Assembly (NCBI RefSeq): GCF_988242995.1
Contig: NZ_OZ547043.1
Length of the DNA: 64,000 nt
Strand: one strand, 5' to 3'
Below are positions 5,001 to 19,732 of this stretch, piece after piece. The stretch's first letter is position 1. The number at the start of each line of letters is the position of its first letter. The notes beneath the pieces are model-generated. The model ran no database searches. It had not been told where the DNA came from and saw only the letters and a list, made by a program, of their open reading frames with translations. The position numbers were made by a program, and so were the translations under genes.

Positions 5001-5698
5001 TGCAGGACATACAACAGGAAACACTGAATGAATGCATTCGGGCGGAGCAGTCGGCCAGCGTGGTGCTCTGGGAAATCGACCTGACAGAGGTTGGCGGGGA
5101 TCGCTACTTTTTCTGCAATGAGCAGAATGAAAAAGGTGAGTCTGTCACCTGGCAGAGTCGGCAGTATCAGGCCTATCCCATTCAGGGGAGTGGATTTGAG
5201 ATGAACGGCAAAGGTGCCAGTGCAAGGCCAACACTGAAAGTATCTAACCTGCACGGCATGGTCACCGGGATGGTGGAGGATTTACAGAGTCTGGTCGGCG
5301 GAACAGTCGTCCGGCGTAAGGTCTACGCCCGTTTTCTGGATGCGGTGAACTTCGTCAACGGAAACAGAGACGCCGATCCGGAGCAGGAGGTGATCAGCCG
5401 CTGGCGCATTGAGCAGTGCAGCGAACTGAGCGCGGTGAGTGCCTCTTTTGTACTGTCCACGCCGACGGAAACGGACGGCGCTGTTTTTCCGGGACGTATC
5501 ATGCTGGCCAACACCTGCACCTGGACCTATCGCGGCGATGAGTGCGGTTATCACGGTCCGGCGGTCGCGGATGAATATGACCAGCCAACGTCCGATATCA
5601 CGAAGGATAAATGCAGCAAATGCCTGAGCGGTTGTAAGTTCCGCAATAACGTCGGCAACTTTGGCGGCTTCCTTTCCATTAACAAACTTTCGCAGTAA
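5000..5698 (+). CDS. Minor tail protein L
   Basis: 232 aa, lambda gpL-like with a Cys-rich C-terminus (CTWTYRGDECGY...CSKCLSGCKF); start overlaps the M stop. Confidence 0.85.
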   Translation: MQDIQQETLNECIRAEQSASVVLWEIDLTEVGGDRYFFCNEQNEKGESVTWQSRQYQAYPIQGSGFEMNGKGASARPTLKVSNLHGMVTGMVEDLQSLVGGTVVRRKVYARFLDAVNFVNGNRDADPEQEVISRWRIEQCSELSAVSASFVLSTPTETDGAVFPGRIMLANTCTWTYRGDECGYHGPAVADEYDQPTSDITKDKCSKCLSGCKFRNNVGNFGGFLSINKLSQ

Positions 5699-6985: not shown

Positions 6986-7004
6986 TGAAAAACGTTTTAT
7001 GTGA

Positions 7005-7030
7005 AACCGCCTCCGGGCGGTTTTATCGTT
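7005..7030 (+). terminator. Terminator-like hairpin between I and J
   Basis: aaccgcc-tccg-ggcggtt stem-loop followed by a T-rich run, 16-40 nt upstream of the J start. Confidence 0.3.
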
Positions 7031-7045
7031 TATGGAGCATGACGA

Positions 7046-10000
7046 ATGGGTAAAGGCAGCAGTAAGGGGCATACCCCGCGCGAAGCGAAGGACAACCTGA
7101 AGTCCACGCAGCTGCTGAGTGTGATCGATGCCATCAGCGAAGGGCCGGTTGAAGGTCCGGTGGATGGATTAAAAAGCGTGCTGCTGAACAGTACGCCGGT
7201 GCTGGACAGTGAGGGGAATACCAATATATCCGGCGTCACGGTGGTGTTCCGGGCCGGTGAGCAGGAGCAGACTCCGCCGGAGGGATTTGAATCCTCCGGT
7301 TCCGAGACGGTGCTGGGTACGGAAGTGAAATATGACACGCCGATCACCCGCACCATCACGTCGGCAAACATCGACCGTCTGCGCTTTACCTTCGGTGTGC
7401 AGGCACTGGTGGAAACCACCTCAAAGGGGGACAGGAATCCATCGGAAGTCCGCCTGCTGGTTCAGATACAACGTAACGGTGGCTGGGTGACGGAAAAAGA
7501 CATCACCATTAAGGGTAAAACCACCTCGCAGTATCTGGCCTCAGTGGTGGTGGATAACCTGCCGCCGCGCCCGTTTAATATCCGGATGCGCAGGATGACG
7601 CCGGACAGCACCACAGACCAGCTGCAGAACAAAACGCTCTGGTCGTCATACACCGAAATCATCGATGTGAAACAGTGCTACCCGAACACGGCACTGGTCG
7701 GCGTGCAGGTGGACTCGGAGCAGTTCGGCAGCCAGCAGGTGAGCCGTAATTATCATCTGCGCGGGCGTATTCTGCAGGTGCCGTCGAACTATAACCCGCA
7801 GACGCGGCAATACAGCGGTATCTGGGACGGGACGTTTAAACCGGCATACAGCAACAACATGGCCTGGTGTCTGTGGGATATGCTGACCCATCCGCGCTAC
7901 GGCATGGGGAAGCGTCTCGGTGCGGCGGATGTGGACAAATGGGCGCTGTATGTCATCGGCCAGAATTGCGACCAGTCGGTGCCGGATGGCTTTGGTGGCA
8001 CGGAGCCTCGCATCACCTGTAATGCCTGGCTGACCACGCAGCGCAAGGCGTGGGATGTGCTCAGTGATTTCTGCTCGGCGATGCGCTGTATGCCGGTATG
8101 GAACGGGCAGACGCTGACGTTCGTGCAGGACCGGCCATCGGATAAGGTGTGGACCTATAACCGCAGTAATGTGGTGATGCCGGATGATGGCGCGCCGTTC
8201 CGCTACAGCTTCAGCGCCCTGAAGGACCGTCATAATGCCGTTGAGGTGAACTGGATTGACCCGAATAACGGCTGGGAGACGGCGACAGAGCTTGTGGAGG
8301 ACACGCAGGCCATTGCCCGTTACGGTCGTAACGTCACGAAGATGGATGCCTTTGGCTGTACCAGCCGGGGGCAGGCACACCGCGCCGGGCTGTGGCTGAT
8401 TAAAACAGAACTGCTGGAAACGCAGACCGTGGATTTCAGCGTCGGCGCAGAAGGGCTTCGCCATGTACCGGGTGATGTTATTGAAATCTGCGATGATGAC
8501 TATGCGGGGATCAGCATTGGCGGGCGCGTGCTGGCGGTGAACAGCCAGACCCGGACGCTGACGCTCGACCGTGAAATCACGCTGCCATCCTCCGGTACCA
8601 CGCTGATAAGCCTGGTTGACGGGCAGGGGAGTCCGGTCAGCGTGGAGGTTCAGTCCGTCACCGACGGCGTGAAGGTGAAAGTGAGTCGGGTTCCTGACGG
8701 CGTTGCCGGATACAGCGTGTGGGGGCTGAAGCTGCCGACGCTGCGCCAGCGCCTGTTCCGCTGTGTGAGTATCCGTGAGAACGATGACGGCACGTATGCC
8801 ATCACTGCCGTGCAGCATGTACCGGAAAAAGAAGCCATCGTGGATAACGGGGCGCACTTTGACGGCGACCAGAGCGGCACGGTGAATGGTGTCACGCCGC
8901 CAGCGGTGCAGCACCTGACCGCCGAAGTCACCGCAGACAGCGGGGAATACCAGGTGCTGGCGCGCTGGGATACGCCGAAGGTGGTGAAGGGCGTGAGCTT
9001 TATGCTTCGCCTGACCGTGGCAGCGGATGACGGCAGTGAGCGGCTGGTCAGCACGGCCCGGACGACGGAAACCACATACCGCTTCAGGCAGCTGGCTCTG
9101 GGAAATTACAGTCTGACAGTCCGGGCGGTAAATGCGTGGGGGCAGCAGGGCGATCCGGCGTCGGTATCGTTCCGGATTGCCGCACCGGCAGCGCCATCGC
9201 GGATTGAGCTGACGCCGGGCTATTTTCAGATAACCGCCACGCCGCATCTTGCGGTTTATGATCCGACGGTACAGTTTGAGTTCTGGTTCTCGGAAAATCG
9301 GATTGCGGATATCAGGCAGGTTGAAACCAGCGCGCGTTATCTTGGCACGGCGCTGTACTGGATAGCCGCCAGTATCAATATCAAACCGGGCCATGATTAT
9401 TATTTTTACGTTCGCAGTGTGAACACCGTCGGCAAATCGACATTCGTGGAGGCTGTCGGTCGGGCGAGCGATGATGCGGAAGGTTACCTGGATTTTTTCA
9501 AAGGCAAGATAACCGAATCTCATCTCGGCAAGGAGTTGCTGGAAAAAGTCGACCTGACGGAGGATAACGCCAGCAGACTGGATGAGTTTTCGAAAGAGTG
9601 GAAGGATGCCAACGATAAATGGAATGCCATGTGGGCTGTCAAAATTGAGCAGACCAAAGACGGCAAACATTATGTCGCGGGTATTGGCCTCAGCATGGAG
9701 GATACAGAGGAAGGCAAACTGAGTCAGTTTCTGGTTGCCGCCAATCGTATCGCGTTTATTGACCCGGCAAACGGGAATGAAACGCCGATGTTTGTGGCGC
9801 AGGGCAATCAGATATTCATGAACGAAGTGTTCCTGAAATATCTGACGGCTCCCACCATTACCAGCGGCGGTAATCCTCCGGCATTTTCCCTGACACCGGA
9901 CGGGCGGCTGACGGCGAAAAATGCCGATATCAGCGGTAACGTGAATGCGAACTCCGGGACGCTCAACAACGTCACGATTAACGAGAACTGCCGGGTTCTG

Positions 10001-10441
10001 GGAAAACTGTCCGCGAACCAGATTGAAGGCGATCTCGTTAAAACAGTGGGCAAAGCTTTCCCCCGTGACTCCCGGGCACCGGAGCGGTGGCCATCAGGGA
10101 CCATTACCGTCAGGGTTTATGACGATCAGCCGTTTGACCGGCAAATTGTTATTCCGGCGGTGGCATTCAGTGGCGCTAAGCATGAGAGAGAGCATACTGA
10201 TATTTACTCCTCATGCCGTCTGATAGTGCGGAAAAACGGTGCTGAAATTTATAACCGTACCGCGCTGGATAATACGCTGATTTACAGTGGCGTTATTGAT
10301 ATGCCTGCCGGTCACGGTCACATGACACTGGAGTTTTCGGTGTCAGCATGGCTGGTAAATGGCTGGTATCCCACAGCAAGTATCAGCGATTTGCTGGTTG
10401 TTGTGATGAAGAAAGCCACTGCAGGCATCACGATTAGCTGA
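7046..10441 (+). CDS. Host specificity protein J (central tail fibre / tip attachment protein)
   Basis: 1131-aa ORF; N-terminus [34 protein letters not shown] and most of the length are lambda J-like from memory; the last ~150 aa diverge. Confidence 0.9.
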
Positions 10442-10508: not shown

Positions 10509-11108
10509 ATGCGTAAATTATGTGCTGTTATTCTGTCCGCAGTAGTCTGGCTGGTTGCCGCTGGTACGCCAGCGAGCGCAGCAGAGCATCAGTCCACACT
10601 AAGCGCCGGGTATCTTCAGACCCATACTGATATGCCAGGCAGTGATGACCTGAAGGGCATTAACGTGAAATACCGTTATGAATTTACGGACATGCTGGGG
10701 CTGGTGACGTCATTCAGTTATGCCAATGCCAAAGATGAGCAAAGAACGCATTACAGCGATACCCGCTGGCATGAAGATTCAGTGCGTAACCGCTGGTTCA
10801 GCATGATGGCGGGGCCATCTGTACGCGTGAATGAATGGTTCAGTGCTTATGCGATGGCAGGTGTGGCTTACAGCCGTGTTTCGACGTTCTCCGGGGATTA
10901 TCTCCGCGTAACTGACAACAAGGGGAAAACGCACGATGTGCTGACCGGAAGTGATGACGATCGCCACAGCAACACGTCTCTGGCGTGGGGAGCTGGCGTG
11001 CAGTTTAACCCGACCGAATCCGTGGCCATTGATATTGCTTATGAAGGCTCCGGCAGTGGCGACTGGCGCACTGACGGTTTCATCGTGGGTGTCGGTTATA
11101 AGTTCTGA
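10509..11108 (+). CDS. lom: Lom-like outer membrane beta-barrel protein (Ail/Lom/PagC family)
   Basis: 199 aa with a signal peptide and a C-terminal aromatic residue (…VGVGYKF); lambda lom position between J and stf; bracketed by terminator hairpins. Confidence 0.8.
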   Translation: MRKLCAVILSAVVWLVAAGTPASAAEHQSTLSAGYLQTHTDMPGSDDLKGINVKYRYEFTDMLGLVTSFSYANAKDEQRTHYSDTRWHEDSVRNRWFSMMAGPSVRVNEWFSAYAMAGVAYSRVSTFSGDYLRVTDNKGKTHDVLTGSDDDRHSNTSLAWGAGVQFNPTESVAIDIAYEGSGSGDWRTDGFIVGVGYKF

Positions 11109-11166: not shown

Positions 11167-13530
11167 GTGGATATGGCAGCAGTAAAAATCTCAGGTGTGC
11201 TGAAAGATGGTGCGGGAAAACCAATACAGAACTGCACTATTCAACTGAAGGCAAAGCGTAACAGCACCACGGTACTGGTGAACACGGTGGCCTCTGAAAA
11301 TCCGGATGAAGCCGGGCGTTACAGCATGGATGTTGAGTATGGTCAGTACAGCGTCACCCTGCTGGTTGAAGGTTTTCCGCCTTCACATGCCGGGACCATT
11401 ACCGTCTATGAAGGTTCCAGACCAGGTACGCTGAATGATTTTCTCGGTGCCATGACGGAAGATGATGTCATGCCGGAGGCATTGCGTCGTTTTGAGGCAA
11501 TGGTGGAAGAAGCGGCACGCAACGCCGAAGCCGCCTCTCAGAGCGCAGCAGCGGCAAAGAAATCCGAAACTGCAGCGGCATCATCGAAGAACGCGGCGAA
11601 AACCTCAGAAACAAATGCAGCTAACAGCGCACAGGCGGCAGCGTCCTCGCAGACTGCATCGGCAAACTCCGCGACAGCAGCCAAAAAATCAGAAACCAAC
11701 GCGAAAAATAGCGAGACAGCCGCAAAGACGAGCGAAACCAACGCAAAGTCCAGCCAGACGGCAGCGAAAACAAGCGAAACGAATGCCAAAGCCAGTGAAA
11801 CTGCGGCAAAAAACAGCCAGGTTGCAGCAGCCCAAAGCGAGAGCGCGGCAGCCGGTTCTGCGACTTCAGCAGCTGGATCAGCAACTGCTGCGGCTAACAG
11901 CCAGAAAGCTGCGAAGACGAGTGAAACTAACGCAAAGTCCAGCCAGACGGCAGCGAAGACCAGCGAAACGAATGCCAAAGCCAGCGAAACTGCGGCGAAA
12001 AACAGTCAGGATGCAGCAGCCCAAAGCGAGAGTGCTGCAGCTGGTTCTGCCACTGCATCAGCCAACAGTCAAAAAGCAGCAAAAACCAGTGAAACCAATG
12101 CAAAGACAAGCGAGACTGCAGCGGCGAACTCGGCGAAAGCATCCGCTGCAAGCCAGACCGCTGCAAAAGCAAGTGAAGACGCAGCCAGAGAGTATGCAAG
12201 CCAGGCAGCAGATCCGTATAAATATGTCTTACAGCCGCTGCCTGATGTGTGGATACCGTTTAACGATTCACTGGATATGATTACGGGCTTTTCGCCATCA
12301 TATAAAAAGATTGTTATTGGTGACGACGAAATAACGATGCCTGGCGACAAGATTGTTAAGTTTAAACGTGCATCGAAAGCAACCTATATTAACAAATCTG
12401 GTGTGTTGACAGAGGCTGCCATTGATGAGCCACGATTTGAACGTGATGGCCTGCTTATTGAGGGGCAAAGAACTAATCTTCTGCTTAATTCAACAAATCC
12501 ATCTAAATGGAATAAGTCAGGCAATCTGGAACTCACAGAAATATCCACGGATTCTTTTAATTTTACTTATGGGAGATTTACTGTAAAAGATACTCTTATT
12601 GGTCAGACAAGTGCTATTAATATCGTAACGATTTCTGGCAGTAAAGGGTTTGATGTCACAGGTGATGAAAAATATGTGACCATTTCATGCCGTGTAAGAA
12701 GTGATGTTGAAAATATAAGGTGTCGTTTAAGATTTGAACACCATGATGGTTATACTTACACTTTTTTGGGAGATGCTTACCTCAATTTATCAACACTTGT
12801 AATTGATAAAACTGGTACTGCTGCAGACCGTATTATTGCAAAGGCTGTAAAAGATGAGGTTACTGGTTGGATTTTCTATCAGGCTACAATTAATGCACTA
12901 GATACAGAGAGCATGATTGGTGCGATGGTTCAATACGCTCCTGTAAAAGGTTCAGGTACAGCATCTGGAGACTATCTGGATATCGCAACTCCACAAGTGG
13001 AAGGTGGATCAAGTGCTTCGTCATTTATTGTAACTGATATAACTGCAAGCACTCGCGCAAGCGATATGGTGACAGTCCCAATCAAGAATAACCTTTATAA
13101 TCTTCCTTTTACGGTTCTTTGTGAGGTACATAAGAACTGGTATAAAACGCCAAATGCAGCACCGCGTGTTTTTGATACCGGCGGTCATCAAACCGGAGCG
13201 GCTATTATTCTTGGCTTCGGTCGTTCAACAGATTACGACGGATTTCCTTATTGTGATATAGGTTTGGCTAACAGACGGGTAAACGAAAACGCATCGCTTG
13301 AAAAAATGGTTATGGGGATGCGTGTAAAGTCAGATCAGTCTACGTGCTCAGTAAGTAACGGGCGTATATCCAGCGAAAAGAAAGCCACATGGTCCTATAT
13401 TCAGAACTCCGCAATTATCCGTATTGGAGGCCAGACTACAGCCGGGTTGCGTCATTTATTTGGTCATGTCAGGAATTTCAGAATATGGCACAAGGCATTG
13501 ACTGATGCTCAGATGGGGGAGTCAATCTAA
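11167..13530 (+). CDS. stf: Side tail fibre protein (Stf-like) with a replaced C-terminal receptor-binding region
   Basis: 787 aa; N-terminal region with Ala/Ser/Thr-rich KTSETNAK-type repeats typical of Stf; the C-terminal ~400 aa are markedly AT-richer by eye and end in a motif (GHVRNFRIWHKALTDAQM) reminiscent of ConA/LamG-like lectin folds. Confidence 0.8.
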   Translation: MDMAAVKISGVLKDGAGKPIQNCTIQLKAKRNSTTVLVNTVASENPDEAGRYSMDVEYGQYSVTLLVEGFPPSHAGTITVYEGSRPGTLNDFLGAMTEDDVMPEALRRFEAMVEEAARNAEAASQSAAAAKKSETAAASSKNAAKTSETNAANSAQAAASSQTASANSATAAKKSETNAKNSETAAKTSETNAKSSQTAAKTSETNAKASETAAKNSQVAAAQSESAAAGSATSAAGSATAAANSQKAAKTSETNAKSSQTAAKTSETNAKASETAAKNSQDAAAQSESAAAGSATASANSQKAAKTSETNAKTSETAAANSAKASAASQTAAKASEDAAREYASQAADPYKYVLQPLPDVWIPFNDSLDMITGFSPSYKKIVIGDDEITMPGDKIVKFKRASKATYINKSGVLTEAAIDEPRFERDGLLIEGQRTNLLLNSTNPSKWNKSGNLELTEISTDSFNFTYGRFTVKDTLIGQTSAINIVTISGSKGFDVTGDEKYVTISCRVRSDVENIRCRLRFEHHDGYTYTFLGDAYLNLSTLVIDKTGTAADRIIAKAVKDEVTGWIFYQATINALDTESMIGAMVQYAPVKGSGTASGDYLDIATPQVEGGSSASSFIVTDITASTRASDMVTVPIKNNLYNLPFTVLCEVHKNWYKTPNAAPRVFDTGGHQTGAAIILGFGRSTDYDGFPYCDIGLANRRVNENASLEKMVMGMRVKSDQSTCSVSNGRISSEKKATWSYIQNSAIIRIGGQTTAGLRHLFGHVRNFRIWHKALTDAQMGESI

Positions 13531-13811
13531 TGAAAGATTTAACACTCAAATTTGCAGACAGGGCCGACTTTTCGGCCTTTATGGATAGCATTGGCTATTA
13601 TGATGACGAGTCGATGCAGGATGATATTCTTATTGACGTGATAGGTAACGTGTACAAAGAAACCGGAGAACTGACTGAAGATGGCGAACCGGTATGTGTT
13701 AAGGAAGACGGATATTTTGTAAACGTGCGCATCATTAATGATGCAAAAAAATCGTCAATATTCGATGAATACGCGGTTGTAGTTGAACATCAACTTCGTG
13801 GCTGGATGTGA
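13530..13811 (+). CDS. Hypothetical acidic 93-aa protein; possible tail-fibre chaperone
   Basis: ATG overlaps the stf stop (TAATG), suggesting translational coupling; no family recognised. Confidence 0.4.
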   Translation: MKDLTLKFADRADFSAFMDSIGYYDDESMQDDILIDVIGNVYKETGELTEDGEPVCVKEDGYFVNVRIINDAKKSSIFDEYAVVVEHQLRGWM

Positions 13812-13820
13812 GGGAGACAA

Positions 13821-14525
13821 ATGGCTACATCGACAGTAATTCCAGGAGACATCACCACGTTAAAGGGAGATGTCAGTAAAGCCAAGGAAGATATTTCCTC
13901 AATTAACGGAAAAGTATCAACGCTTCAGGCTGATATGACCAGTGCAAAGCAGGATATCAGCACCAGATACACAAAAACTGAAGTTGATAATAAGCTGAAA
14001 AACAAACTGGAAGTGAACGCTCTGGAAAGCGGTCGTTATGGTGGAGATTTTTACCCGTTGACTGGCCGTGAAGCGTTTTATTTGTGGGGATTGGGCACGA
14101 CTACAGCGGCGGCAAACCTTTATCTTAATCCTGACCCCGCAATTTCGTCTGTGCTGCGGTCAACATCGTCTATCCGCTATAAACATTCAGTAGAGACAAT
14201 AGATTCAGAGCACGCCGAACTCATTTTCAGGATGCGCCCTGTGTGGTACAGGTCACAATGCGAAAATGACAGGCGTGACTGGGGATTCTACGGATTGATT
14301 GCCGAGGAAGTAGGAGAAATTGCCCCTCAGTTTGTACACTGGCGACCAGCTAACGAAGATGATGCACCGGAAGCTATTTCCAGCAATGGCCTTGTTGCCG
14401 AAGGTGTAATGTACGAACGTCTGGTTGTTCCACTGATTCACCATATCCAGAAGCTGACTGAAAGAGTTGATGAACTTGAGTCAGAATTAAAGTTGTTATC
14501 CGTTTCCCGAAGCGATATCGGATAA
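13821..14525 (+). CDS. Short fibre-like protein: N-terminal coiled coil plus C-terminal intramolecular-chaperone (peptidase S74-like) domain
   Basis: 234 aa; heptad-repeat N-terminus; C-terminal region (RPVWYRSQ...WGFYGLIAEEVGEIAPQFV...MYERLVVPLIHHIQKLTERVDELESEL) matches, from memory, the self-cleaving chaperone domain of endosialidase and T5 L-shaped tail fibres. Confidence 0.5.
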   Translation: MATSTVIPGDITTLKGDVSKAKEDISSINGKVSTLQADMTSAKQDISTRYTKTEVDNKLKNKLEVNALESGRYGGDFYPLTGREAFYLWGLGTTTAAANLYLNPDPAISSVLRSTSSIRYKHSVETIDSEHAELIFRMRPVWYRSQCENDRRDWGFYGLIAEEVGEIAPQFVHWRPANEDDAPEAISSNGLVAEGVMYERLVVPLIHHIQKLTERVDELESELKLLSVSRSDIG

Positions 14526-14535
14526 AGGAGGAGTA

Positions 14536-14829
14536 ATGGATATAACACCTTTCCTTCATGCGCTTTGTGCTGTGGCTGCGCAGCTACTGATTGGTCTTTT
14601 TACCGGGAACTGGGCTTACGGGGCGATAGCCGGTTGTACGTTCTTCATTGCGCGTGAACACACCCAGGCAGAATATCGCTGGATCGAAATGTTCGGGCAT
14701 GGCAAGCGAATGAATATGCCGTGGTGGGGCGGTTTTGATCCGCGCGCGTGGGATGTGGCAAGCCTGATGGATTTTGCTGTGCCGGTGGTGGCGTGTCTGC
14801 TGGTCTGGCTGTTGGTTAATCGTGGGTGA
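14536..14829 (+). CDS. Hypothetical small membrane protein
   Basis: 97 aa with two to three hydrophobic segments; GC-rich coding sequence; function unknown. Confidence 0.35.
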   Translation: MDITPFLHALCAVAAQLLIGLFTGNWAYGAIAGCTFFIAREHTQAEYRWIEMFGHGKRMNMPWWGGFDPRAWDVASLMDFAVPVVACLLVWLLVNRG

Positions 14830-14839
14830 AAAAAGGTGA

Positions 14840-14968
14840 GCTGTATATGCAACGGAGGAAGAAACCCCGTTGCTGGAAGCCTGGAAAAAGTATCGGATGC
14901 TGCTGAACCGTGTTGATACATCAACTGCACCTGATATTGAGTGGCCTACGAACCCTGTCAGGGAGTAA
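14840..14968 (+). pseudogene. tfa: 3' remnant of a tail fibre assembly gene (tfa), lacking start and N-terminal part
   Basis: Frame-2 translation gives ...[36 protein letters not shown], which matches the conserved C-terminus of lambda/P2-type Tfa proteins as I recall it; an in-frame stop lies immediately upstream (14837-14839). Confidence 0.55.
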
Positions 14969-15180
14969 TCATTGGGATTATGCCGCAGAAACGTTGTATG
15001 CAATAACGTTCTGCGGTTGGCTGATGCACTTTCGAGAGTGCATGTATTGAATTATTTCCAGCTATTATCGATTTTACGTATTTTTTGCATGAGAGAATTT
15101 GTACCTCCTCCCAACAACGACCTTCCATGACTTTCCGGACTTCTGTGGGCCAGCGGACGATGCTGCCCTCGGATGTTGTG

Positions 15181-16038
15181 CTAATTGGGTGATGACAAAT
15201 CCTGTGTATGGGTGTTTCCCTTTGTGCGTGCGTTGATGCTGGTAACGGTGAACGTCATGATGAACACAACCGCGAATAAGACGACAATCGTCGGAGCTGG
15301 TGCACTGTCGATAAAAAAGGACAACCAGACACCAGTCATTGACACTATTACCGATATGCCAATCGCCAGTAGGAGCGCAATATGAAAGCGTTGTGTCAGG
15401 AGTACCGCAATGGCGCCAGGCGCAATGAGCAGAGAAATGGAGAGAATGATACCTACCGCTTTCAGCGTCGCCACAATGGTCAGAGAGACCATGCACAGCA
15501 GCCCATAATGCAGACATCTCGTATGCAAACCGCTTACCTGCGCCTGTTGATAATCAAAGCTGAACAGCAAAAAATCCCGCCATTTTACGCTAATAACAAG
15601 TGTAACCAGCCCGGCAATAATCACCGTCTGGATTATATCGCCGATGGTTACCCCGAGCATGTCGCCGAAAAGAATATGGTCAAGATGTACGTCTGGTTTG
15701 ACTGCAATATACAAGATCAGACCTGCGGCAAACATGCCAGAAAAAACAATCCCCATCACTGTATCTTGCTTGATTCGGCTGTTGTCTTTCAGGTATCCCG
15801 TCGCCACCGCGCAGAATACTCCGGCGACGAATGCCCCTGTAGCCAGAGGTAACCCCAGAATCCAGGCAAGCACGATGCCAGGAAAAACCGCATGACTCAT
15901 CGCGTCACCCATCAGTGCCCAACCTTTCAGGACCAGAAAGACCGACAGCAGCGCACAGGGTATGGAAACTACCAGTGAAATCAGCAGTGCGTGACTCATA
16001 AAGGTGAACTGCAGTGGCTCCAGTAATAATGCCATCAT
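15181..16038 (-). CDS. sitD: Mn/Fe ABC transporter permease SitD
   Basis: 285-aa polytopic membrane protein of the ABC-3 (ZnuB/MntB) type; last gene of a four-gene operon with overlapping stop/start codons. Confidence 0.8.
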   Translation of the reverse strand: MMALLLEPLQFTFMSHALLISLVVSIPCALLSVFLVLKGWALMGDAMSHAVFPGIVLAWILGLPLATGAFVAGVFCAVATGYLKDNSRIKQDTVMGIVFSGMFAAGLILYIAVKPDVHLDHILFGDMLGVTIGDIIQTVIIAGLVTLVISVKWRDFLLFSFDYQQAQVSGLHTRCLHYGLLCMVSLTIVATLKAVGIILSISLLIAPGAIAVLLTQRFHIALLLAIGISVIVSMTGVWLSFFIDSAPAPTIVVLFAVVFIMTFTVTSINARTKGNTHTQDLSSPN

Positions 16039-16892
16039 GAGCGATCCTCCAGCGCTTTATGCGCACGCCGACGATTTGCCAAAAGCCCATGGGTGGGCGC
16101 AAATACAAATGCTAAAAGAAACAGCAGTGTCTGCGCCACCACGATGATTCCACCTGTCGCGCCGTCCAGAAAGTAACTGACCCACGCGCCGAGGAAACTG
16201 GTTACACTGCCAATAGTTACAGCAATTATGAGCAGGCGGGGAAAACGATCGGTTAACAACCATGCTGTTGCACCGGGAGTCACCACCAGACAGATCACCA
16301 GAAAGGCACCAACCGTTTGCAGCGCCGCAACGGTCGAAACCGACAGCAGGGTGAAGAAGAGGATTTTTAATCTGCCCGGATGCAATCCAATAGCACGAGC
16401 GTGATTCTCGTCGAAAAAGGTCACCATAAGATCTTTCCATTTGAAAAAAAGCACGATGATCGAGAGAATGCCAATGATAGTGAGTTGCAGGATATCCGCC
16501 GGATCGATTGCCAGAATATTGCCCAGGACGATGGTCTGAATGTTCACGGATGTCGGGTTCAATGACACCATAAACAGCCCCAGGCCAAAAAAGGAGGAGA
16601 AGATCAGGCCGATGATGGCATCTTCTTTTAAGCGAGTGCGTTGGTTAAGAAACAGCATGCTGCCCGCTGCCAGTCCGCCGGAAAAGAAGGCTCCCAGAGA
16701 AAACGGAAGCCCCAGCATATATGCCCCCGCAACACCCGGGACAATAGAGTGCGACAGCGCATCGCCAATCAGCGACCAGCCTTTTAGCATCAGATAGCAT
16801 GACAGGAAAGCGCAGAGACCGCCGACCATCGCCGAGACCCACATCGCATTGAGCATATATTCATAGCTGAAGGGTTCCAGTAGCACGTTCAT
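16035..16892 (-). CDS. sitC: Mn/Fe ABC transporter permease SitC
   Basis: 285-aa polytopic membrane protein; overlaps sitB and sitD by 4 nt each. Confidence 0.8.
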
Positions 16893-17716
16893 CTTGCTTC
16901 CCCCTGCACCGCTGACGGTCGATGTGCCACAAAAGGGTGTTCATCGTCAGTAATAATGCTTTCTTCCGAGCCGTTAAGTGTGACATGGCGCAGTACGCCG
17001 CTAAAAGCCAGCTCCAGGTTCTCGGCTGTAAAAGTGGTGTCTGTCGGCCCGCTTGCCAGGACGGTGCCTTTGACCATGACCGTATAATCGCAAAATGTCG
17101 TGACTGAGCCGAGATTGTGCGTTGAGACAAGCATCGTCTTGCCTTCCGCGCGTAACTCCCTCAACAGGCTGATGATTTTCGCTTCGGTTTTCACATCAAC
17201 GCCCGTAAAAGGTTCATCCAGCAGGATCACATCACCCTGCTGTGCAATCGCTCTCGCCAGAAAGACGCGTTTCTTTTGTCCACCGGAAAGCTCGCCGATT
17301 TGTCGATGGCGAAAATCCACCATATCGACACGTTCCAGCGCATCGGTGACAATCTGACGATCCCTCTTTTTGGCTATACGCAACATACCCATGTGCCCAT
17401 AGCGGCCCATCATCACCACATCTTCCACTAGTACAGGAAATGACCAGTCAACCTCTTCTGACTGAGGGACGTAGGCAACCAGGTTTTTCTGTAGCGCCTG
17501 TCGCGTGGGAATACCCAGAACAGATATCTTTCCGCTGGTCAGACGCACAAATCCCATAATCGCTTTAAACAACGTCGATTTTCCGGAACCGTTTACCCCA
17601 ACCAGAGCGGCAATAGATCCACTTGGTACTGTGAAGGATGCATCGCGCAGTGCTGTGTGCCCGTTACGCCAGGTGACAGTAACATCATTAACGACAATGC
17701 CCGCAGATTGCATCAT
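16889..17716 (-). CDS. sitB: Mn/Fe ABC transporter ATP-binding protein SitB
   Basis: Walker [10 protein letters not shown], signature LSGGQKKR, Walker B ILLDEP. Confidence 0.85.
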
Positions 17717-18630
17717 TATTTCTCCCTTTTCCCGGCTTTAATTCCCTGTACCAGCGTACTGGTAGTAACCTTCAGAAGGTCGATATACGTAGGTACCGGG
17801 CCGTTTTCTGTGCTCAGGGAATCGACATAGAGTACACCGCCGTAGTGCGCGCCGGTTTCACGCGCAACCTGACGCGCTGGTTTATCGGAAATCGTACTCT
17901 CGCTAAAGACTGCCGGGATATGATTTTTCTTCACCATATCAACAACCTTACGTACCTGCTGCGGCGTGCCTTGTTGATCGGCATTAATCGGCCACAGATA
18001 AAGCTCTTTTAGCCCCAAATCGCGTGCGAGATAAGAAAAAGCCCCTTCACTGGTGACCATCCATCGCTGATTCTCAGGGAGTTCAGCAATCTGCTTACGC
18101 AGGGGGGCAAGGGTTTGGGTAATCTTGGCTTTATAAGTATCGGCATTACGTTGGTAGGTTTGTGCATTTGCCGGATCGTATTTTATCAACGCATCACGAA
18201 TATTATCGACGTAAATCAGAGCATTATCTGGCGACATCCAGGCATGGGGGTTAGGTTTGCCCTCATAGGGGCCTTCAGTGATCCCTACTGGCGTCACACC
18301 CGAAGAGACAATTACTTCTGGAACCCCATTAAGATGCTGGTAAAAGCGTTGGAACCACAATTCCAGATTCATACCATTGGCGAGAATCAGTTGTGCCCCC
18401 TGCGCACGTTTAATATCGCCAGGGGTAGGCTGATACTCATGAATTTCTGCACCGGGCTTGGTTATGGATGAGACTTCTGCAGCATCTCCAGCCACGTTTT
18501 TGGCCATATCTGCGATGATGGTAAATGTTGTAATGACCTTGAATTTTTCAGTTGCACTCGCCTGAAATGCGATCGAGCAGGTGAGGGCGAGGCACCCCAA
18601 GAGCATGGTTACTTTTTTTATTGAGTACAT
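17716..18630 (-). CDS. sitA: Periplasmic metal-binding protein SitA (cluster A-I substrate-binding protein)
   Basis: 304 aa with a signal peptide; first gene of the operon; MntR and Fur boxes lie upstream. Confidence 0.85.
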
Positions 18631-18662
18631 AATTTAGTACCTATAGTGAGCAAAATTAGAAC

Positions 18663-18684
18663 AAACATAGCAACGGCTATGTTT
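18663..18684 (-). promoter_or_regulatory. MntR-box palindrome upstream of sitA
   Basis: AAACATAGCAACGGCTATGTTT, a perfect 9-bp inverted repeat matching the MntR operator type, ~33 bp upstream of the sitA start. Confidence 0.6.
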
Positions 18685-18703
18685 TATAGCACAACCTATA
18701 CAA

Positions 18704-18722
18704 AATGAAAATGATTATCATT
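18704..18722 (-). promoter_or_regulatory. Fur box upstream of sitA
   Basis: AATGAAAATGATTATCATT; about 16 of 19 positions match GATAATGATAATCATTATC. Confidence 0.55.
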
Positions 18723-18840
18723 AGCAGCTTTGGGGCCCAAAACAGGGATTAGGTTGTTTCCTGCTGGCGACGCGTTATTGAGGAAAAAAGTAAGGCAGCT
18801 AGTAGGCTTTGAAATGACTTGATGAGGAAAATTGTTGATG

Positions 18841-18892
18841 GCAAAAATGGGGCAAAGCGCTGCAAAAGGGGCAAAAAAGGGGCAAAAAAAGA
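18841..18892. repeat. Phased G-GCAAAA A-tract repeats (five copies at ~10-11 bp spacing); predicted intrinsically bent DNA
   Basis: gcaaaaatggggcaaagcgctgcaaaaggggcaaaaaaggggcaaaaaaag, with repeat starts at about 18841, 18852, 18862, 18871 and 18882. Confidence 0.5.
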
Positions 18893-19184
18893 GTGGGTTA
18901 TCGTAGCTTATTGTTGTCGCTGATGATATTTAACACATTGAAAAATAAGTAAAATACTTATGAGTCAGAGAGTTGTGATTTTTGCCCTTACTTGTTCAGG
19001 TTGTATTGTTCTTTCTTACTAAATTCTTGATTTTGCGACATTTAAAAGCGACTCAATTCGTTATATGGCATCAGAAGAGTATGCGTCATGCCGGAACGCC
19101 CAGCATAAGAAATCTGATATAAAAACTGTGGCGTGTATGGTACGGATTAGAGGGGAAAATGTCAGCACATTTGCGAAATGAATC

Positions 19185-19210
19185 AAAAAGCCCGCAGGAA
19201 TGTGCGGGCG
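19185..19210 (-). terminator. Intrinsic terminator downstream of uspF
   Basis: On the minus strand, a gcccgca-cattcc-tgcgggc hairpin followed by TTTTTG. Confidence 0.55.
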
Positions 19211-19216
19211 TTAGTG

Positions 19217-19732
<516 letters not shown>

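Follow-up and report, generated by a model that had tools for sequence, protein, structure and literature searches.

The question raised by the short reading frame at positions 14840-14968 is how the C-terminal sequence of a tail fibre assembly (Tfa) protein came to stand alone downstream of a side-tail-fibre gene, and whether it still has a function. The stretch of DNA analysed here (64,000 nucleotides, hereafter the window) contains the right end of a lambdoid prophage at the Rac/ttcA-uspF site, and K-12-colinear chromosome follows from position 18839 (uspF, ompN). As described in PMC9608196, which summarises North et al. (2019), the N-terminal domain of TFAs binds the fibre and is variable, whereas the helical domain at the C-terminus is conserved and mediates trimerization. 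In lambda, PhiR26_1 and K-12 Rac, the start of tfa abuts the stop of stf. A preliminary description of the window, made from the letters alone, proposed that the frame is an orphan C-terminus of Tfa with no start codon and with a stop directly upstream, that the ancestral stf-tfa junction was overwritten by ~2.6 kb of foreign sequence (12.24-14.83 kb), and that the fragment marks the right-hand edge of the replaced module.

In the present analysis, the fragment and its surroundings were compared with phage records, protein and RNA family profiles and complete Escherichia coli genomes. The stretch is interpreted as a non-functional 3' remnant of a lambda-type tfa gene and as a marker of the recombination boundary at the right-hand end of a tail-fibre cassette, a reading to which a probability of roughly 0.88 is assigned. 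The remnant itself is already known, being an annotated and very common pseudogene present in about one third of complete E. coli genomes, and nothing specific to this particular junction was found in the literature searched.

Identity and extent of the tfa remnant

A tblastn search of all six frames of the 64 kb window with lambda Tfa gave a single significant match, on the same strand as stf, in which residues 156-195 of lambda Tfa align with 14849-14968 at 87.5% identity (E 2.4e-17); the next best match had an E value of 0.1. The Pfam profile Caudo_TAP (PF02413) matches over model positions 95-130 of 131 (E 2.2e-16), and the tail-fibre-assembly families of PHROG match with E values of 1e-11 to 1e-15. 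Furthermore, when 50,697 phage records were searched by tblastn, the fragment peptide aligned with the C-terminus of the annotated Tfa of lambda, HK629, HK630 and others. Chance similarity is ruled out by E values of 1e-16 to 1e-17. The proposed identity is borne out by these searches, including the comparison with lambda Tfa by which it was to be checked.

Translation of 14831-14971 yields a 45-residue peptide, of which the sequence quoted in the preliminary description is a substring beginning at 14858. The frame is open from 14840 to 14965, ends with TAA at 14966-14968 and is closed upstream by an in-frame TGA at 14837-14839, next to which lies an unrelated intact gene. Whereas a full two-domain Tfa (~175-195 aa) comprises the variable fibre-binding N-domain and a complete C-domain, only the last ~39-43 codons survive here, spanning the distal part (~60%) of the conserved helical domain and none of the N-domain. 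No N-terminal Tfa sequence was detected anywhere in the 64 kb window by tblastn with lambda Tfa. The 39 codons of the stump share 87-95% identity with the C-termini of lambda Tfa, K-12 TfaR and PhiR26_1 Tfa, and the hairpin flank downstream of the lambda gene is the same as that behind the stump; in contrast to lambda Tfa and TfaR, however, the stump lacks ~150 N-terminal codons (the fibre-binding N-domain in its entirety and the first half of the C-domain), has no start codon context and has no Tfa-dependent fibre tip of the lambda Stf C-terminal type upstream. The resemblance of lambda Tfa to Mu gpU (PDB 5YVQ) is confined to residues 126-191, and this alignment, together with PMC9608196, places the conserved C-domain of lambda Tfa at residues ~126-191.

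In an intact gene the tfa start typically overlaps the stop of the upstream stf, whereas here the frame is preceded by the TGA at 14837-14839 and, before that, by the stop of an unrelated ORF. An in-frame TTG (14870) and ATG (14897, a private GTG>ATG change) sit within conserved coding sequence, and no plausible 5' initiation site is present, so that the description of a frame with a stop immediately upstream and no start codon holds. The features of the region are collected in Table 1.

Table 1. Features at the right end of the prophage, in window coordinates.
Feature	Position	Strand	Evidence or remark
gpJ	7046-10441		
lom	10509-11108		
787-aa side-tail-fibre gene	11167-13530	+	Pfam PF08400 E 1e-66; NF048003 E 1e-15
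93-aa ORF	13530-13811	+	start overlaps fibre gene stop, the position of tfa in lambda
234-aa short fibre protein with Peptidase_S74 intramolecular-chaperone domain (optional sub-module)	13821-14525	+	PF13884 E 2.7e-5, residues 116-172; phrog_3299
Intact 97-aa predicted membrane protein, last gene of incoming cassette	14536-14829	+	phrog_1443 E 6e-59
Junction spacer AAAAAGG, between 97-aa ORF stop and stump	14830-14836	+	alignment of carriers
Degenerate 5' extension of stump, TGAGCTGTATAT	14837-14848	+	alignment with type-B stump of strain 361 and intact tfa
tfa pseudogene stump (lambda Tfa codons 156-194 plus TAA)	14849-14968	+	tblastn, Pfam; coordinates match RefSeq EC042_RS27755 (E. coli 042)
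Conserved stem-loop directly 3' of tfa stop, part of lambda-homologous flank	14982-15017	+	RNA fold -23.7 kcal/mol, z -3.5
lambda b-region homologue (between ea47 and ea31)	14982-15132	+	82.8% identity to lambda
sitDCBA iron/manganese transporter moron, downstream neighbour of stump	15181-18630	-	ORFs; RefSeq annotation of 042 locus

The junction and the replaced segment

On the right-hand side, DNA homology to lambda, PhiR26_1 and K-12 tfaR begins at 14848/14849, at GCAACGGAGGAAGAAACC. The twelve bases immediately before it, TGAGCTGTATAT, look like a damaged extension of the gene: they can be matched to GAGCTGGAAATC (E-L-E-I) of a tfa allele if two substitutions and the loss of 1 nt are allowed for, and they contain the frame-closing TGA. 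The stump of strain 361, which belongs to a second, longer class, reads GAGCTGGAAATC GCAACGG in frame, and the homology of the window to that locus begins at 14837. Tfa homology beginning at 14837-14849 agrees with the placement of the right-hand edge of the replaced module at this point. On the left-hand side, phages in which the stf-tfa pair is intact cease to be homologous at the DNA level at 11525-11564, coinciding with the end of the phage_tail_N domain (aa 134); the alignment to such phages, which had been suggested as a check, is lost there, and homology to intact tfa begins again at 14848/14849. At the protein level, resemblance to lambda Stf extends across the repeat shaft as far as ~12006, homology of the fibre C-terminus starts at 12234 for the phage-21/AR_0104 type and at 12079 for ev243, and the GC content falls from ~0.53 to 0.35-0.44 from ~12.3 kb. 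The interval 12.24-14.83 kb is a fair description of the foreign part, and the proposed edges of the ~2.6 kb overwrite are reasonable; however, it is not a single piece but consists of three sub-modules, namely the fibre C-terminus with the 93-aa ORF, an optional S74-type fibre ORF, and the 97-aa ORF.

The 787-aa fibre combines a phage_tail_N anchor (aa 5-134) and an Ala/Ser/Thr-rich repeat shaft with a foreign C-terminal receptor-binding region. Similarity to lambda Stf is limited to residues 2-305, and the C-terminal half of lambda Stf found nothing better than E 0.3 in the window. The C-terminal region is related to the RcGTA head-spike fibre, with matches to NF048003 at aa 430-631 and to PDB entry 6tb9, chain F3 (E 2.9e-4). 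The shaft (11500-12200) is a long Ala/Ser/Thr-rich repeat (…KTSETNAKSSQTAAK…) with AT skew of up to 0.6; internal near-repeats of ~250 bp occur within it (~11707-11955 versus 11896-12123) and likely drive variation in fibre length.

The 93-aa ORF, which is acidic and always accompanies this fibre family, has no detectable relation to Tfa. Homologue searches with it returned only near-identical unnamed Escherichia proteins, and its AF2 model is confident (pLDDT 83) yet gave no informative structural or sequence match. The 234-aa ORF consists of a coiled-coil-like N-terminus and the Peptidase_S74 domain, and self-cleavage would leave little beyond a ~115-aa stub; this S74 fibre ORF is absent from ev243, phage 21, BL21 and AR_0104, and a 346-aa allele is found in 042 and 2G7b. 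The 97-aa ORF, for which there was no Pfam match, is present in 73 phage records including phage 21. It stands alone behind tailspike genes in the P22-like Gally and EC.W1-9, and a homologue follows tfa in the P2-like Halomonas phage phiHAP-1. Its homologues lie directly downstream of the receptor-binding genes of three tail types that are unrelated to one another (side fibres of lambdoid phages, tailspikes of P22-like phages and the tail of the P2-like Halomonas phage), and this moron-like position suggests a role tied to the receptor-binding protein or to superinfection exclusion.

The junction TGAAAAAAGG-TGAGCTGTATAT-GCAACGG was found in 1738 of 5426 complete E. coli genomes with a 121-nt probe spanning the joint (coverage of at least 80%). 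Two lambdoid phage isolates described in PMC6969025, 2G7b and ev243, share the joint, as do PhiR49_1, classical phage 21, E. coli 042, BL21 Rac, AR_0104 and prophages at other sites (prfC). An assembly artefact is ruled out by its presence in these complete genomes and independently sequenced phages. Wherever the stump trails the 97-aa ORF, the joint follows the consensus ...GGGTGA-AAAA(A)GG-TG(A/G)GC(T/A)GTATAT-GCAACG..., and all copies examined have the same junction sequence apart from point changes, indicating that it arose once. From these comparisons the junction is judged to be old and inherited, the stump not having been created in this genome. The proposal that the stf-tfa junction had been overwritten is accordingly sound in that only the tail of tfa is left, but the overwriting is not an event of this genome.

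In 042, as in each further RefSeq genome locus inspected that has an untruncated stump, the equivalent of 14849-14968 is labelled 'tail fiber assembly protein; incomplete; missing N-terminus' by RefSeq, and the strain 361-type stump is annotated likewise. The closest complete genome for the fragment region is that of E. coli 042 (99.5% identity). The annotated tfa pseudogenes (EC042_RS27755 in 042, BL21(DE3) Rac and many others) share the sequence, the junction and the PGAP annotation, and nothing essential distinguishes the window from them; it pairs the stump with a 234-aa S74 allele (PhiR49_1-like), a lambda-type flank and sitDCBA. In the phage isolates 2G7b, ev243 and PhiR49_1 and in phage 21, the stump is present and no intact tfa lies beside this fibre.

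Probable erosion of the stump and alternative readings

The stump shows signs of decay. Phage 21 and AR_0104 have kept only 57 nt of it, the remainder being lost in a deletion that corresponds to 14906-15160 of the window, and a probe across the deletion joint found this truncated form in 1053 genomes, that is, in most junction carriers. The window copy carries private Ser>Pro (in the helix) and Val>Met changes, and in ev243-type copies the conserved helix is altered by E>K, E>A, K>A and Y>C. Scored with the phrog_188 and phrog_105 profiles, the remnant peptides fall 3-7 bits short of intact C-termini of the same length. A breakpoint at 14837-14849, the 57-nt form and the lowered profile scores are what characterizes a gene remnant at a mosaic boundary. 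The window stump differs from the closest intact allele by only two non-synonymous and two synonymous changes, 39 codons being too few to give dN/dS power. No internal stop or frameshift was found in 14849-14968 in any full-length copy examined; homogenization by recombination with intact tfa explains this open frame equally as well as purifying selection does.

The flank behind the stump is also variable. The stem-loop of Table 1, which is conserved between lambda and these prophages, has a variant in PhiR49_1, 2G7b and PhiR26_1 in which both arms are changed and the pairing is kept (z -4.6). It has no U-run and does not fit the intrinsic-terminator consensus; situated between convergent genes, it may mark the 3' end of a transcript or contribute to transcript stability. 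Consensus scans of 14400-15300 found no promoter-like or intrinsic-terminator sites. Phage 21 (OL657228) shares with the window the fibre family, the 92/93-aa ORF, the 97-aa membrane ORF, the junction and the downstream sitDCBA, and differs in lacking the S74 fibre ORF and in its shortened stump. The b-region segment of ~150 bp lies between the stump and sitD in the window and beyond sitA in phage 21 (8515-8646 of its locus, L017) and AR_0104, so that the position of the sit cassette relative to this segment differs among lineages. A search for direct repeats on either side of sitABCD, as a possible source of the phage-21-type deletion, found none. The sitABCD genes have been reported on 70% of infant-gut lambda-like phages (PMC6969025).

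Among the other explanations, the one that survives best, although it is given very little credence, is that the stump is expressed by itself, either as a peptide of ~32 aa from TTG 14870 mimicking the Tfa trimerization helix or as part of an IS009-like small RNA. The TTG is preceded by a Shine-Dalgarno-like GGAGG (14854-14858) 11 nt upstream, and the ORF is open in every full-length copy; however, the GGAGG and the TTG are ancestral codons (T-E-E ... L) of every intact tfa, no promoter-like site was found in 14400-15300, the commonest variant of the stump is the truncated one, and the window copy has a proline in the helix and reduced family scores. The Rfam search returned only IS009 (RF02111), at 14827-14925 with E 1e-13, and this sub-threshold match restates the tfa homology: at 62.8 bits it stays well short of the gathering score of 117, whereas intact PhiR26_1 tfa and K-12 tfaR score 221-228 bits. 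The model covers the last ~200 nt of intact tfa, where its full hits lie, and is unstructured over the aligned part. Only its 3' ~70 positions align with the stump, and the other two thirds have no counterpart there. In related loci, IS009 hits (L008, 5879-6077; L013, 6755-6953) coincide with the conserved 3' ~200 nt of an intact tfa CDS, and IS009, which is listed as an RNA gene, may in prophages simply report tfa genes. That a peptide from TTG 14870 interferes with or assists the fibre assembly of co-resident or superinfecting Tfa-dependent phages is regarded as slightly less probable again.

A reading in which the fragment is the true C-terminus of a gene, reached from the 97-aa ORF by a frameshift, stop readthrough or programmed recoding, is considered close to negligible. 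The A-rich run TGAAAAAAGG (14827-14836) between the ORFs superficially resembles a slippery sequence; however, two stops in two frames would have to be bypassed (TGA 14827-14829 and TGA 14837-14839), and the A-run is located after the first of these. Its length is polymorphic, ev243-type copies being one A shorter, which changes the frame relation between carriers and implies that no reading-frame link is conserved between the 97-aa ORF and the stump. The 97-aa ORF is found without any tfa stump in Gally and EC.W1-9, and the distal half of the stump is lost in phage 21 and the 1053 genomes with the deletion. Upstream, tblastn with lambda and PhiR26_1 Tfa found no hidden N-terminal Tfa that could be reached by a frameshift. 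The case that was named in advance as contradicting the remnant, an intact gene continued through an upstream frameshift, fails in that the 97-aa ORF is intact, of an unrelated family and in a different frame, its stop lying seven bases upstream of TGA 14837-14839.

Invertible fibre segments carry partial stf/tfa copies (Mu G, P1 C, e14 P), and the same stump adjoins the pinR invertase gene in BL21. That the stump is a silent alternative segment of a Pin/Gin-type invertible region is nevertheless dismissed almost entirely, as none of the hallmarks of a Pin/Gin/Cin-type segment (a serine invertase gene next to the segment, crossover sites in inverted orientation and an alternative fibre/tfa segment facing the other way) was found: no invertase lies nearby in the window, the next gene being sitD, no inverted repeats occur in 14700-19400, the only Tfa-like sequence in the window is on the same strand as stf, and the BL21 arrangement is accounted for by recombination with the resident tfaR-pinR.

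The remnant as a probable recombination boundary

The reading as a non-functional remnant at a recombination boundary rests further on the mosaic structure to its right, where the left junction stays constant while the 3' ends and downstream contexts joined to it are of at least four kinds. The window, 042 and strain 361 have a stump that ends in ...PTNPVRE and a stop codon, followed by the lambda-type hairpin, the lambda b-region segment and sitDCBA. The stumps of PhiR49_1, 2G7b and ev243 have the same ending, but it is followed by the variant hairpin and a ybcY-like methyltransferase gene. The stump of BL21 Rac matches the 3' end of K-12 tfaR (...AQDIEWPALP and stop) from early on, with one difference in the first 18 nt, and leads into pinR, and that of the prfC prophage ends in ...PEEPDTM and a stop. 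The 3' half of the stump and the downstream DNA thus vary by carrier, each matching whichever tfa allele or flank is resident in that prophage. The comparison of the window with strain 361 has the same character: identity is 88.9% to the left of 11564, the cassettes in between are unrelated, and the stretch that begins exactly at 14837 and runs across sit into chromosomal DNA, up to 19500, is 99.2% identical. Sites with Tfa-3'-like DNA number 2 per E. coli genome in the median and reach 10, so that homologous partners are abundant. In related phages (loci L002, L003, L008, L009, L011 and L012, at ~5100-5300 or 7000-7200 of the respective locus, outside the window), a second, different tfa fragment lies downstream of the ybcY-like methyltransferase gene and resembles the DLP12 tfaX arrangement; partial tfa copies are therefore recurrent in this region of the genome.

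From these mosaic patterns, seen at about 15 loci, the stump appears to have served as the right-hand homology arm for cassette exchange. In the mechanism proposed, an ancestral event would have fused a cassette, comprising a new fibre C-terminus, the 93-aa ORF and the 97-aa ORF, into tfa at about codon 152, and later versions of the cassette would have the S74 fibre present or absent. The new receptor-binding domain would need no Tfa-type chaperone, and there would be no selection for repair of tfa. The cassette would then have spread among lambdoid prophages through homologous recombination, the conserved phage_tail_N-coding 5' end of stf acting as the left arm and the highly conserved 3' end of tfa, coding for the C-domain, acting together with the downstream hairpin as the right arm. 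Meanwhile, the stump would decay, as in the private helix-unfriendly substitutions of the window copy and the deletion to 57 nt in the phage 21 lineage.

The second stump class bears on the loss of tfa. It is found directly after fibres of 975-1252 aa in 792 genomes, and a Peptidase_S74 intramolecular chaperone (E 3.8e-12) forms the end of the one fibre of this class that was tested, that of strain 361. The position of such a stump behind a self-chaperoning S74 fibre fits the loss of tfa once the fibre tip no longer needs Tfa. On the basis of domain content and of plaque-forming carriers, it is plausible that neither kind of tip, head-spike-fibre-like or S74, depends on a Tfa-type chaperone for folding.

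Modular exchange of tail-fibre genes at conserved boundary sequences was reportedly described by Haggard-Ljungquist in 1992 and by Sandmeier in 1994. The present locus resembles such exchange in that a variable receptor-binding cassette lies between conserved segments, the stf 5' anchor domain and the tfa 3' end, which are common to otherwise different phages. It differs in that the conserved segment on the right is a non-coding relic and not part of a working tfa.

The finding carries little weight for annotation, and it fits long-standing ideas of modular phage evolution without changing them. Its value is modest and is that of a marker: the stump shows where, on the right, an exchangeable receptor-binding cassette of lambdoid prophages ends, which helps in interpreting host-range mosaicism and in selecting splice points when lambda-type fibres are engineered. 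Apparently, putatively Tfa-independent fibre cassettes can be moved between prophages at different chromosomal sites with no more than a relic of ~60-130 bp and the conserved 5' anchor domain of stf.
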